From positions 203,794,001 through 203,858,000 of the forward strand of contig OZ024741.1 in the NCBI GenBank assembly GCA_964016885.1: a stretch of 64,000 bases of DNA. Direction: 5' to 3'. The stretch is from Eledone cirrhosa. Lineage: Eukaryota. The notes beneath the pieces were generated by a model. It made no database searches and was not told where the DNA came from. It saw nothing but the letters and a program-made list of their open reading frames with translations. Position 1 is the stretch's first letter. Each line of letters starts with the position of its first letter. This document shows positions 38,509-46,292 of the stretch, piece after piece. The position numbers and the translations under genes are program-made.

Positions 38509-38530
38509 CACGTGATTTCTGTTATATAAG
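38509..38530 (+). promoter_or_regulatory. Core promoter of the repeat-peptide precursor gene: CACGTG E-box + TATA box
   Basis: CACGTG at 38509-38514 and TATATAAG at 38523-38530 in non-microsatellite context. Inr-like TAAGTC lies about 27 nt downstream. Confidence 0.6.
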
Positions 38531-38550
38531 AGGGCATTACCGCTTAACTA

Positions 38551-38625
38551 AGTCAATCTGTAAACTGCACGAAACTCTGCTTCAATCCTGAAATCCACCA
38601 ATTTGCCGATTTATCTTCAGATAAG
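38551..38625 (+). other. Probable non-coding exon 1 (5'UTR) of the precursor gene
   Basis: Starts about 28 nt after the TATA box, has no ATG, and ends at an AAG|GTAGTA donor. The next acceptor is at 39013-39014. The start is inferred. Confidence 0.55.
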
Positions 38626-39019
38626 GTAGTAATTTGCTTTTTTCTAATTTAAATTTTTACAGTTTAACTTCACTAATATTTTAAATGTTAAAACTTTTAT
38701 TTTCATTCTAATGAATTATTGATATTATATTTTAGTCATTTGGTCGATAGATTGATAAGATTTTAAAAAGTCAGGTGAAATGCAGTTTTTGTTTACGCCC
38801 TCTAGATACAGGTGATTTAATCAGTAATCACATATATATAGATGTTTTAGTCAGTAATCACATAGCTATATTGTTATTTCATTTGATACATATATACATA
38901 ATAAATGGCGCACTATTCATTCCCAGTTTTGATTCCTCTTCTGAGTAACATTGCTCCCCAATACCCACTGGAGAATCCATGCATTATAAACTAATATTTC
39001 TCTATGATTTTTAGATAAA

Positions 39020-39065
39020 ATGGAGACTTATTTGATTCTCGTCTGCTGTTTCGTAATTTCCACTG
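39020..39065 (+). CDS. Signal-peptide exon of tandem-repeat peptide precursor (METYLILVCCFVIST+G)
   Basis: Branch-like CTAAT at 38991, tttttAG acceptor at 39013-14, aaaATGG start context and perfect GTGAGT donor at 39066. Phase 1 joins in frame to 44534 (G+CA = Ala, then Leu-Pro-Met). Confidence 0.88.
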
Positions 39066-39752
39066 GTGAGTTGAGATTTAACTATATTTTTGTTTTATTT
39101 ATTTATTTTGTTTTATGTATTTATTTGATTTACTTATCTAGTTGCCGGTTTCAGTCATTTCAAGCATTATGTGGCACCGCCTAAAAGGGATGGGTTTAGT
39201 CGAGCCCGATATTTACTTTTTTAATGTTCAGTACTTATTTTAACAATCTCTTTTTAATTAACTGCAAAATTACAAGCGATATAAATACAGACACGTGAAC
39301 ACATGCACTTACACGTATATGCATCCATATATAGATATATATAGATATAGATATATAGATATAGTGAAGGCGTGTGGCTGATTGGTTAGAGAACTGGATT
39401 CGCAATCGTGAGGTTGTCAGTTCGATTCCAGGACCGGACGATGCGTTATGTCCTTGAGCAAGACACTTTATTTCACGTTGCTCCTTCTACCTGGAGTTGC
39501 AACCGATAGACAGTATTAGCAATTGGAAAGACCAACGGAAACATTGTTTCCTCGGTCCGATTTGACGAAAGTCAGTCGACTAAAAAAAAGAAAATAACAT
39601 ATTTTCCTTCGGTTGCAACCTTTTTCGAAATATTTACTGCTGCGTCCACAGATTGATTTAATTTAGTTTCACAAGATGCCTCTAAGGGTGAAAGCAGCGG
39701 TTCTTTGCTTAAATTTTAATCTATTTTAATATATATATATATATATAATCAG

Positions 39753-40962
39753 GAGTTGACGGACCCAGCATTTTTATCAATGCCAGGACCGGTTGTATCT
39801 CAGCGTACTCAATAGATAATGTAGGATACATTCCCAGAATATACACAGTTATTCGCTTCAATACAACACACGTGAACGGGTGCCTATACTAGTTTCCGGA
39901 TTCTAGTTTCGGTCACACTTAATGCAGCAGTAGGGTGCACTGCACCCTCTGTCTGCATATATTATGCAACAATGCATAATCGGCGTATGGGGCTTCATCA
40001 GCGGGTATCGACTAATCAATAACCAATAGATCGACAGAATCCAAACCCCAGCCCATGCCGGCTATGACTGCTTGTGACTGCCGACACAGTAAAGTGATTA
40101 GCAACTGGAATCTGATACAACTCTGTCCACCGACCAGCCACCGATTTACAAACTTTACGTGGTGGCGGGAGATTAGAAAACAAATATTTTCGTTCCCGTC
40201 ATAAAGACTCATCCAACGTGTCTCAAACAAAAATTAATAAGATAGTGAAAAGTTGGTTATTAGAAAGAGCAGTGCCACATCGATGTATAATAGAATGGTA
40301 GCATTCGGCTCAGGTCTCTAAGTCCCATGGCTAGAGGAAAGCGATAATTAACAATGGTAGCGCCAAGAACCTTTAACGGACATTAAATTCTAGTATCTAT
40401 TATACAGCGATATAGAGTAGCGAGCTGGATTGCGGCAGCCACGTGTGTAAAACCAGTTTATTTCATAACTTAAAGAGTGAGAGATGAAATTAATAGCAGG
40501 AATTAGAGAGCATATAAAAAAAAACACAATAAAAAAGTGAAAAATTGTTTAACTTACTCTCATTAGTCTGCTAGTTTGGAGATAATAATAATAATGAGTT
40601 GACGGACCCAGCATATTTATCAATGCCAGGACCGCTTGTATCTCAGCGTACTCAATAGGTAGTGTAGGATACATTCCCAGAGTATACACAGTTATTCGCT
40701 TCAATACAACACACGTAAAACGGGTGCCTATAGTAGTTCCTGGAGTCGAGTTTTGGCCACACTTAATGCAGTAGTAGGGTGCACTGCACCCTCTGTCTGC
40801 ATATATTATGCAACAATGCATAATCGGCGCATGCGGCTTCATCAGCGGGTATCGTCTAATCAATAACCAATCGATCGACAGAATCCAAACCCCAGCCCAT
40901 GCCGTCTATGACTGTTTGTGACGGCCGACACAGTAAAGTGATTAGCAACTGGAATCTGATAC
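39753..40962. repeat. Direct repeat pair (~350 bp; 39753-40105 and 40595-40962), LTR-like
   Basis: Both copies run gagttgacggacccagcat...caactggaatctgataca. The second has TG...CA ends. The spacer is about 490 bp. Confidence 0.75.
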
Positions 40963-43384: not shown

Positions 43385-43399
43385 TTAAACTTCTACTTA

Positions 43400-43745
43400 A
43401 GCACCAGCGTTGTCCACCATTGTTTGTAATCGTCTGGGTATGTCCTCCACCGACTTCATCAGGTGGTATTTTACTCAGTACATGACGAGTGCGTTCCTCC
43501 AATTGTCACAAGTTTTGGTTTTGAGCTATAAACTTCTTCCTTCAACCATCCCCACAGGAACAAATCGCATGGCGTTGAGCCAGGGCTTCTTACTGGCCAT
43601 TTATGTGGACCTCAACGACCCAGCCAACGTCCTGAAAATTCAACATCAAGCCGCTCACGAACGGTGTATCGTATGAGGAGTAGTCCCATCTTGCACGAAT
43701 ATGAGGTCATTGATGTCCCAAGTAGTCACAGTAGGCCAAACGTTA
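43400..43745 (-). mobile_element. Tc1/mariner transposase C-terminal remnant
   Basis: LIFVQDGTTPH (cf. FQQDGAPPH) followed by a degenerate DxFLWG..K..Y..KP region. Confidence 0.55.
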
Positions 43746-44533
43746 TAAGTAATTTTAATAGGGTGTTTCTTTCCAGCAATCCTGTATGTTTTCAAAGTTA
43801 TATCAAGCTCCATACATGGGTCTGCATTTAATGAAACCAAATCTACCCTTAGATATTGTGAAAATACTGAAAATGTTGAAAAATGGACATTTGAGTTTGT
43901 GAAAAGTATTGACAGTAGAAGAAAATGGATCTCATTTTTTAAATCATCACCTCAAAATTACAAGGAAACATGTCTCCAAAACCAGACAGCAAAACCCATG
44001 TTCCATAGTATTATTTAATCGTGTATTTATTAGTATATTTATTATTTATTTATGGGCAAAATTAACAATAAGCTATATATTTGAAAATAGCAAACAATTT
44101 GGTCTCTGGACATCAGCGATTGTCTATTGTTAATTTTGACCACAAGAGGAGTTCAACTAATTCCTTTAAACTAAAATACTTGTCAAACCACACTACGTCT
44201 TTGCGACTGTTTACATCTATGTAGAATTCAGAGCCAATTGTTTGCTTCCCGCTATTGTAGTGTTGATGATGACATGCGTGTCATCATTGTTGGAAACTGA
44301 CAAGCCAACATTGTACTAGAAGAAATATTTTCGGGTGAAATCCTAAAAATTTCTGTAATACTAGAGAATTTCAATATTAAAATTTCAGTAATTTTAAAGT
44401 AATTTGTTTTAGAAATATATTCCCAAAAGCAATATAATCTAGTCTACTGAGTATGAAGCATATACATTCTCCTTCATTAACAATTTTATAAATTCTAATT
44501 CAGTTTTATATATATTTATTTATTTACATACAG

Positions 44534-45603
44534 CACTACCTATGAATGTGATCAATAACATACCAGCTGATATGGCTATTGCTTCACAAGATATACCAGC
44601 ATCTGTCCTCAGTAAAAGGTCAATTCCTGCAGATATGGCTGTAGCTTCACAAGATATACCAGCATCTGTCCTCAGTAAAAGGTCAATTCCTGCAGATATG
44701 GCTGTAGCTTCACAAGAAATACCAGCATCTGTCCTCAGTAAAAGGTCAATTCCTGCAGATATGGCTGTAGCTTCACAAGATATACCAGCATCTGTCCTCA
44801 GTAAAAGGTCAATTCCTGCAGATATGGCTGTAGCTTCACAAGAAATACCAGCATCTGTCCTCAGTAAAAGGTCAATTCCTGCAGATATGGCTGTAGCTTC
44901 ACAAGATATACCAGCATCTGTCCTCAGTAAAAGGTCAATTCCTGCAGATATGGCTGTAGCTTCACAAGATATACCAGCATCTGTCCTCAGTAAAAGGTCA
45001 ATTCCTGCAGATATGGCTGTAGCTTCACAAGAAATACCAGCATCTGTCCTCAGTAAAAGGTCAATTCCTGCAGATATGGCTGTAGCTTCACAAGATATAC
45101 CAGCATCTGTCCTCAGTAAAAGGTCAATTCCTGCAGATATGGCTGTAGCTTCACAAGAAATACCAGCATCTGTCCTCAGTAAAAGGTCAATTCCTGCAGA
45201 TATGGCTGTTGCTTCACAAGATATACCAGCATCTGTCCTCAGTAAAAGGTCAATTCCTGCAGATATGGCTGTAGCTTCACAAGATATACCAGCATCGGTC
45301 CTCAGTAAAAGGTCAATTCCTGCAGATATGGCTGTAGCTTCACAAGATATACCAGCATCTGTCCTCAGTAAAAGGTCAATTCCTGCAGATATGGCTGTAG
45401 CTTCACAAGAAATACCAGCATCTGTCCTCAGTAAAAGGTCAATTCCTGCAGATATGGCTATTGCTTCACAAGATATACCAGCATCTGTCCTCAGTAAAAG
45501 GTCAATTCCTGCAGATATGGCTGTAGCTTCACAAGATATACCAGCATCTGTCCTCAGTAAAAGGTCAATTCCTGCAGATATAATCATAAAAAAAAACCCA
45601 TGA
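44534..45603 (+). CDS. Main exon of secreted multi-copy peptide precursor (16 KR-delimited 21-aa repeats)
   Basis: CTAAT branch at 44495 and ttacatacAG acceptor at 44532-33. Uninterrupted frame LPMNVINN-(IPADMA[V/I]ASQ[D/E]IPASVLSKRS)x16-IPADIIIKKNP*. The spliced protein is 371 aa. Confidence 0.9.
44560..45581 (+). repeat. Coding minisatellite, 63 bp x ~16.2
   Basis: Unit tcaattcctgcagatatggctgtagcttcacaagatataccagcatctgtcctcagtaaaagg, with only a few variable positions. Confidence 0.98.
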
Positions 45604-45845
45604 GATTCTGTGATTGATATTCGTGCAACTTTCAACAGCATTGGTGGTATAAATGAAACAGAACTGTTCTGATGAAGACTAGGTCTCTATTTATCAGCAG
45701 GTTTTCTTAGATATACACAAAATAGCTGCTCCCATCAAATGAAATAAATTATCAACAATGTAATATTAAAAATGGATTTTAAGTCATAGAGTCCTGGTTG
45801 TATTTCAAGAAATATTCCTTGACATAATTGTTTTATAACTCGTTC

Positions 45846-45851
45846 AATAAA
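45846..45851 (+). terminator. Polyadenylation signal of the precursor gene
   Basis: AATAAA followed about 25-40 nt later by a U/GU-rich element (ttttctgttgtgttggg). A weaker AATAAA lies at about 45743. Confidence 0.7.
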
Positions 45852-46292
45852 ATATTAACTTCTTTAATTCACATTTTCTGTTGTGTTGGGTATTATATTT
45901 GTCTGTTTTATGTAATTAAATAATATTAAGATGGTGTATGTATTATGTTGAGATTCACATATAATTAGGCTTATATCTCTAAATCAACTTTGCATTATTA
46001 CAAATGGTGTCTTTCAAATAAATACACGTAATACTGTAAACTTGAATCAATAAACAATTCAGCCATCTATGGGCCCTTGACTCCTGATGGAGTCCTAGGA
46101 ATTCCACTGTGGATATGGCATCTTTAACCCATGCATTTTAAACGTGTCGGAGCCCATCCGTCTTCAGATCGCAACAAAACCTGTTTCTTTTAGGTAAAAG
46201 GGGAGGGAGAAAGAGAGAGAGGAAGAATCAACCCAAGAATTGGTACTTTATTCATCGATCTCAAAGGATGAAAGGAAATGTTGTCTGGTGGG

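Follow-up and report, generated by a model that had tools for sequence, protein, structure and literature searches.

Predicted gene structure

The window analysed here is a 64-kb stretch (64,000 nucleotides) of the genome of Eledone cirrhosa (assembly GCA_964016885.1, contig OZ024741.1, positions 203,794,001 to 203,858,000, forward strand), which is part of a 416-Mb contig (genome size 3.0 Gb) and carries on its plus strand a predicted three-exon gene for a secreted multi-copy peptide precursor. The gene model, in which splicing is predicted from sequence signals, is probably real. Its predicted spliced coding sequence comprises 1116 nt, corresponding to 371 residues plus a TGA, with a 16-residue signal-type start and 16 Lys-Arg (KR) sites. 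The remainder of the window is mostly mobile DNA with Helitron and long interspersed nuclear element (LINE) frames. Positions are those of the window unless a chromosome is named.

The promoter is marked by a TATA box at 38523..38530 (+), together with an initiator-like site 28–32 nt downstream (about 38549–38558). The background scan covered both strands of 464 kb, i.e., 928 kb, and contained 49 such TATA and initiator pairs, among which the one at 38523 is the single plus-strand pair within 30,000–46,000. An E-box (CACGTG) is present at 38509–38514, 9 nt upstream of the TATA box.

The predicted non-coding exon 1 (38551..38625, +, start approximate) is ATG-free and single-copy, and ends at a moderate donor, AAG|GTAGTA after 38625, that agrees with six of nine consensus positions and ranks in the top 16%. 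Predicted intron 1 (38626..39014, +, 389 nt) is of the GT..AG type and closes with TAG| immediately before 39015, an acceptor that, together with its branch motif, falls in the top 0.75% of the 51,837 AGs ranked. The predicted exon 2 (39015..39065, +), supported by hydropathy and the exon filter scan, has 5 nt of untranslated region (UTR) followed by 46 nt of coding sequence for a signal-type hydrophobic stretch, which opens with an ATG at 39020 in the context AAAATGG, reaches a peak nine-residue hydropathy of 3.64, and has Ser at −3 and Ala at −1. The second donor, CTG|GTGAGT after 39065, is in phase 1 and ranks in the top 0.43%. DNA reads show one allelic difference in this exon, at 39043, which is synonymous.

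Predicted intron 2 (39066..44533, +, 5,468 nt) holds repeats and decayed mobile-element frames, including a very high-copy short element at about 39280–39580, a 377-nt repeat in two copies, and a near-perfect inverted-repeat element of 394 nt at 41140–41533, of very high copy and flanked by TA runs. The initial annotation described this intron as transposon-filled, which holds in part: about 30% of it has another copy in the 464 kb, and read depth shows that more of it is repeated genome-wide. The depth data come from three short-read DNA runs of one sample, possibly the assembly's own, whose reads are continuous across the introns as DNA.

The predicted terminal exon 3 (44534..45870, +, end approximate) begins after the acceptor CAG| immediately before 44534, which is in the top 1.5% of AGs and lies 23 nt upstream of the first repeat unit, and the phase of exon 2 agrees with the reading frame of the repeat. 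The frame ends at a TGA (45601..45603, +), 12 codons past the last Lys-Arg, and is followed by an AATAAA with a U/GU-rich downstream element (45846..45896, +) that ranks in the top 0.7% of 1,124 AATAAA sites. All coordinates of the initial annotation for the TATA box, splice sites, ATG, stop, and AATAAA were borne out when the sequence was re-checked, and its three-exon model is supported by an anatomy above background.

Further features were observed near exon 3. An alternative acceptor at 44504, 30 nt upstream of 44534, has a nearly equal score and is in frame; if used, it would insert ten residues, most of them hydrophobic, behind the signal exon. At 44399–44503, one contig in all three DNA runs omits 103 nt, branch motif included, just upstream of the exon 3 acceptor; its short side is only 21 letters and may derive from another repeat. 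Donor-like AG|GT sequences stand at each Lys-Arg/Ser junction (44619, then every 63 nt), match seven of nine positions without the +5 G, and offer a possible route to shorter splice forms.

Repeat array and predicted peptides

Exon 3 is dominated by an array at 44569..45581 (+), in which Tandem Repeats Finder (TRF) detected 16.1 copies of 63 nt with 97% matches and zero indels, with the same 5-nt word at both ends. Each unit encodes 19 residues plus Lys-Arg, and against a threshold of at least three near-identical internal repeats, the array provides 16. All 16 units end in Lys-Arg, and all 32 basic residues of the units belong to these pairs, which stand at the same place and are followed by Ser. 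The unit has a net charge of 0, from two acids and two bases, and is rich in Ser, Ala, and Pro. Besides Val/Ile, there is one recurrent variant, Ser-Gln-Asp to Ser-Gln-Glu, in five of the 16 units.

Cleavage at the 16 KR sites would yield nine copies of SIPADMAVASQDIPASVLS, five of the Glu variant, one of the Ile variant, one N-extended 26-mer, and a 12-residue end piece, with predicted masses of 1870.935 Da and 1884.950 Da, and of 2693.377 Da for the N-extended form. The predicted products have no Gly, Cys, or aromatic residue. Translation confirmed what the initial annotation had listed, namely, the 371-residue product, the 16 KR sites, the 9/5/1 peptide counts with the N-extended form, and the absence of a Gly amide donor, Cys, and aromatic residues.

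The first unit (44557..44619, +) deviates from the array consensus chiefly over the initial 12 nt; there it still encodes Ile-Pro-Ala, with each of the three codons altered at its third position. Past the stop, 22 more in-frame codons remain open (45604..45675, +) before two stops, and they include a worn second half-unit copy at 45616–45639. This copy matches at 16 of 24 nt, a level reached by 10 of 462,777 background 24-mers. Ile-Pro-Ala-like motifs occur four times in one frame, one of them past the stop.

Six units were modeled as a single sequence, giving a mean predicted local distance difference test score (pLDDT) of 57.8, a predicted template modeling score (pTM) of 0.34, and a regular strand-plus-short-helix period at low confidence. 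Since these values are too weak, no fold is supported and a fold search is not meaningful.

Single-locus status

The unit appears to be confined to this locus, with the counts from genome searches taken as lower bounds. All nine matches of the protein search of the genome lay inside the array, as did all seven matches of the DNA search with the unit and 10 of 11 protein matches at an expectation value (E) of 10, the other being an unrelated 33-nt minisatellite on C7 (E 3). The promoter with exon 1 and the 3′ UTR had one genome match each. The contig of the unit had a depth of 12–16x flank (23–29x when overlapping contigs were summed), compared with 10^5–10^6 for the dispersed repeats of the long intron. 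The initial annotation had raised dispersal of the 63-bp unit as a satellite or transposon part as an outcome opposed to its proposal, and this was rejected, as the lower-bound searches and depth showed no copies at other loci and no mobile-element flanks.

There were no paralogues within 200 kb on either side (464 kb scanned). Two look-alike signal exons about 95–100 kb downstream were discarded, as they lie inside copies of a repeated element. Short-read contigs agree with the assembly across the stop, with identical letters, and across the 3′ UTR, and they show no assembly error at the stop; this agreement is not independent support because the single sample may be the assembly's own.

Gene anatomy against chance expectation

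The preferred reading, to which a probability of roughly 0.58 is given, is that the locus works as a convertase-cut multi-copy secreted peptide precursor, as its sequence predicts. Several points weigh against it. Among 20,000 shuffled units, 85.6% had an open frame and 10.5% had KR in an open frame (23.5% had an open frame holding KR or RR, and at least two open frames were present in 51.7%). At a distance of 147 kb, a 69-nt x 19 array with Arg-Arg in all its units fronts a Helitron frame, and two other minisatellites have open frames, of 486 codons inside the myosin gene and of up to 893 codons on C7. The signal, judged from hydropathy alone, has no basic N-terminal residue, and no relative that could show conservation was found in the databases searched. 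The third-position pattern of the units is common to the antisense frame and cannot, for that reason, pick the strand; the changes since the expansion (two synonymous and two conservative) are too few to show selection; and the stop sits inside apparently former coding sequence.

The repeat frame with its Lys-Arg is, taken alone, weak evidence, because it is found in 10.5% of shuffles and is mimicked by the Helitron array, and the initial annotation overrated the tandem units and dibasic sites as strong evidence. The case for a gene rests on the surrounding anatomy, which is well above background. A signal-type phase-1 exon, defined by an acceptor, a purine at −3, an ATG, a hydrophobic stretch, and a donor, occurs once in 928 kb under both strict and medium filters, and that one is exon 2. 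A loose filter returned 62 such exons in 928 kb, and exon 2 was still the sole plus-strand one between 25,000 and the array. These filters flatter the gene because they were written after it had been seen.

The same comparison bears on the view that the array is a non-coding minisatellite, whose open frame and Lys-Arg arose by chance and whose upstream exon-like signals are unrelated. It agrees with the shuffle frequencies, with the nine comparable arrays in 464 kb, six of which have at least one open frame and two a dibasic pair per unit, and with the failure to find a homologue in the databases searched. However, it is improbable, because several things would have to coincide: a unique signal exon, agreement in phase, an acceptor in the top 1.5% lying 23 nt ahead of the first unit, and a poly(A) context in the top 0.7%. 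The codon-position pattern and older in-frame motifs indicate a coding past.

Two of the arrays mentioned above are observations in their own right. The 69-nt x 19 array (C2, about 203987035–203988366) has a 485-codon frame, mimics a peptide precursor, and is easy to mis-call. The 33-nt minisatellite of C7 (about 11273300–11276900) has three open frames up to the length given above, with frame shifts between blocks.

Indications of a coding past and probable origin of the array

The G+C count at codon positions 1–3 of the unit is 12/21, 11/21, and 4/21, and outside the first codon, six of the seven variable columns are third positions. A codon-usage test trained on haemocyanin frames scored the sense frame at −0.4 and the antisense frame at −4.8, a slight preference for the sense strand, but the test is too noisy to be relied on. 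The antisense frame, which the initial annotation overlooked together with the worn repeat past the stop, is open for 388 codons (44520..45686, −), and its splice-like borders at 45571 and 44564 enclose exactly 16 units.

On this basis, the array could be an internal exon of a minus-strand gene with a 21-residue unit containing one Cys. The frame is stop-free across the worn repeat; its acceptor at 45571 (top 3.9%) and donor after 44564 (7/9) span 1,008 nt, equal to 16 units, from phase 1 to phase 1; the T-run before this acceptor would explain the A-run of the low-complexity sense tail; and six of seven variable columns are synonymous in it, against five of seven in the sense frame. Nevertheless, the borders merely follow from the Ile-Pro-Ala codons of the sense frame and are repeated in all units, the minus strand has no signal-type exon until about 86,900 and an ordinary poly(A) context, and the plus-strand signal exon would be left without a partner. 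The 62 of 113 filtered flank frames that were scanned in Pfam show only mobile-element domains and myosin, a scan that small exons would escape, and no credible family match was obtained in Pfam or Atlas. A minus-strand exon is accordingly rated as very improbable.

The ends of the array record how it may have arisen. From position 13 on, the first unit is identical to the consensus apart from one codon, and the last partial unit is identical to it up to position 17. Outside these breakpoints, which are marked by the shared 5-nt word, both ends read Ile-Pro-Ala-Asp, which suggests duplication between two such motifs. The array likely arose recently from one unit holding the sole Lys-Arg of a much shorter precursor, which would have been duplicated between the two Ile-Pro-Ala-Asp motifs and amplified to 16. 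The older gene probably encoded a short precursor with internal repeats, the end piece of which has become shorter since then, because the open frame past the stop holds the worn half-unit.

That in-frame worn repeat also makes it possible to read the locus as a decaying gene. Here, the TGA would have removed most of the active end of a short precursor consisting of a signal, an acidic spacer, Lys-Arg, and an active peptide, and slippage would have amplified the spacer, so that any products are inert. In keeping with this, the frame runs 22 codons past the stop with a worn repeat motif, the amplified part is chiefly the acidic N-terminal segment, and there is no significant selection signal since the expansion. 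The promoter, splice sites, signal, and poly(A) signal are intact, however, the 16 units have neither indels nor stops, and the tail past the stop has no relative elsewhere in the genome or among 174 candidates, which leaves decay an unlikely explanation.

A more tentative proposal, less likely to be right than wrong, is that the locus represents a lineage-restricted family of cephalopod signaling peptides near its birth. A tandem duplication spanning the single convertase site of a short precursor would have joined the five leading residues of the former end piece to the former N-terminal segment, and fifteen extra copies would have made this hybrid the main product, with the old end piece cut short. 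The outcome might be an unamidated ligand free of aromatic residues, dosed through repeat number and tuned by a Ser-x-Glu phosphorylation switch that one third of the copies carry.

Relatives and comparison with known systems

The DNA-level search covered this genome, and other animals were covered by protein databases; pieces shorter than 61 residues were covered by the search of 1.84 billion representatives alone, and the antisense frame by Pfam and Atlas alone. In the protein searches, the single passing candidate among 7,995 scored was unrelated (25% identity), and no candidate passed among 7,992 or among 174 with the tail read through as X. The 14 matches at E 0.001 among the 1.84 billion representatives were all repeat-to-repeat at 23–47% identity and were rejected, as were Pfam TRAP_beta (sense) and YrzO (antisense), which pass the cut-off only by summing repeats, with no stretch passing alone. 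The best Atlas scores were 0.77 and 0.83, with low recognition; the best E in the PDB search was 0.82; and Rfam gave no match.

The molluscan literature was likewise compared. No motif of or homology to RFamide, myomodulin, MIP, FCAP, or orcokinin B/FLGamide was found in the protein searches, Pfam, or the available survey supplements. These supplements, from a molluscan neuropeptide survey, contained in their available parts only scattered single unit words (at most nine of any word per file) and no array. A full-text literature search with a six-letter peptide word returned unrelated text only, and none of the papers listed in literature searches evidently describes the precursor in its title or the start of its abstract, although subscription papers, figures, bioRxiv supplements, and the remainder of two supplement files could hold such a description. 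The initial annotation had allowed for a strong match to a described precursor; there was none in the databases searched. The predicted precursor is of known architecture and new sequence, and it belongs to no named family tested.

A signal peptide, repeats, and dibasic sites constitute the definition of KEX2-family convertase-cut precursors in fungi and animals (PMC6339444, PMC6756747). The locus shares with multi-copy dibasic-processed precursors, i.e., animal proneuropeptides and fungal KEX2-processed repeat proteins, a signal-type N-terminus, near-identical repeats, Lys-Arg between all of them, and no other domain (PMC6339444). It differs from them in having no sequence relative and in being predicted from its sequence alone, and it is without the X-Ala/X-Pro dipeptide spacer that follows Lys-Arg in yeast alpha-pheromone precursors.

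Many identical copies per precursor are also found in the repetitive neuropeptide precursors of mollusks, such as myomodulin, LFRFamide, PRQFVamide, FCAP, and MIP (PMC6425005), and in orcokinin B/FLGamide of Sepia, which resembles the locus in its many copies and in which copy number varies (seven or eight FLGa 3 copies) (PMC9410093). Some products of these precursors are unamidated, as predicted for the locus. In contrast to the molluscan repetitive neuropeptides as described there, the locus has a longer unit, no Gly amide donor, no aromatic residue, and no acidic spacers between copies. Those families span molluscan classes (PMC6425005), whereas the locus has no detected relative.

The SP and ovarian peptides of Sepia are likewise derived from cephalopod gland precursors with a signal peptide and dibasic processing, and the ovarian peptides lack disulfides and end protection (PMC3484142). 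The SP products are Cys-rich and mutually different, unlike the Cys-free tandem copies of the locus, and the ovarian peptides are smaller (500–1,500 Da), with no sequence likeness to the locus among the peptides listed.

The 476-residue multi-copy KR precursor P0015 shares with the locus tandem KR-bounded peptides, a loosely similar Asp-Leu/Ile-Pro start, and a Lys-Arg-Ser-Ile junction. The identity is 33% (E 2.5e-4) over repeated stretches, and its peptides are 8–11 residues long, Phe-containing, and partly amidated; kinship was set aside and the likeness treated as resemblance only. P0015 and P0016, found on 7–9 kb contigs, are both multi-copy KR precursors of short Leu-Pro-Met-x-Met-Phe peptides, some of them amidated.

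Predicted processing and function

If the locus works as a convertase-cut precursor, it would be transcribed from the TATA promoter and spliced twice, and the signal would be cleaved after residue 16 in accordance with Ser at −3 and Ala at −1. Furin substrates need Arg four residues before the cut. At this position, all 16 units have Leu and lack the furin-type Arg, so the Lys-Arg sites would be cut by an enzyme of the PC1/3 or PC2 type and not by furin, in regulated secretory granules, and the basic pair would then be trimmed by carboxypeptidase. Six loci in the genome match the convertase P-domain, with no subtype assigned. The five Glu-variant peptides, which carry the Fam20C motif Ser-x-Glu, could possibly be phosphorylated, which is noted as a lead only; two Fam20-family loci, also with no subtype assigned, are present in the genome, and Ser-x-Glu is the main phospho-motif among secreted neuropeptides (PMC7948968). 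Approximately 16 acidic, unamidated 19-residue peptides per molecule would be released as a bulk extracellular signal, and expansion of the array would have raised the dose per transcript about 16-fold.

A real secreted gene may instead work uncut or as a material, such as a mucus, cement, or coat polymer. An intact chain could act as a polymer because the unit is charge-neutral and rich in Ser, Ala, and Pro, and the net charge of 0, the absence of features typical of receptor ligands (aromatic residues, amide, disulfides), and the regular strand-plus-short-helix period of the low-confidence single-sequence model all suit such a role. The confinement of all 32 basic residues of the units to identically placed Lys-Arg pairs that precede a Ser speaks for cleavage instead; the model values (pLDDT 57.8, pTM 0.34) support no fold, and there was no true Pfam or PDB match. 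A structural role is on the whole unlikely, though not negligibly so.

For a convertase-cut precursor, the releasing tissue is, by a modest preference, more likely to be exocrine (a reproductive-tract, salivary, or skin gland) than neuronal. This follows by analogy, because the product has no amide or aromatic residues, repetitive neuropeptide families span molluscan classes, and the peptides secreted by cuttlefish glands include dibasic-cut and unprotected ones. In cuttlefish, gland precursors are processed at dibasic sites, and the genital tract responds to ovarian peptides that have neither end protection nor disulfides (PMC3484142). That peptides can evolve de novo in octopus glands has been stated for salivary tachykinins (PMC13311285). 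The preference for a gland is opposed by the reported enrichment of species-specific octopod genes in neural tissue (PMC7656900). Nothing in the sequence specifically indicates a venom role.

A survey of mollusks concluded that new peptide families had not kept pace with cephalopod complexity, and it noted that divergent or lineage-specific families could escape homology searches (PMC6425005). The locus is a case of a precursor that repeat masking and homology search would both skip, and, if the reading is true and the gene neural, it would contradict the published view that no lineage-specific neuropeptide families were added in cephalopods. Orphan precursors confined to one group are already known in bivalves (PMC8398477), and such a precursor is for that reason not surprising as a kind. 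Its exact peptide masses and two junctions make it testable, and its first and last units, which still record the duplication breakpoints, provide a clean model for multi-copy precursors arising from single-copy ones.

Neighboring and other genes

The nearest recognized host gene is a class I myosin, which starts about 105 kb downstream (C2, about 203944700–203969000, +). Its detected exons begin in the middle of the motor domain, and the 464 kb yielded no N-terminal motor motifs. The assembly has a 200-N gap about 5 kb ahead of the first myosin exon seen, and the 5′ part of the gene may be missing or misplaced.

Molluscan haemocyanin is represented by at least five gene copies on two chromosomes, C1 (173745629–173909524) and C26 (21933048–22016816), with seven domain matches per copy, seven units being typical of octopods and of Nautilus. 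The C26 pair is inverted with identical scores, and two further haemocyanin matches lie on C27.

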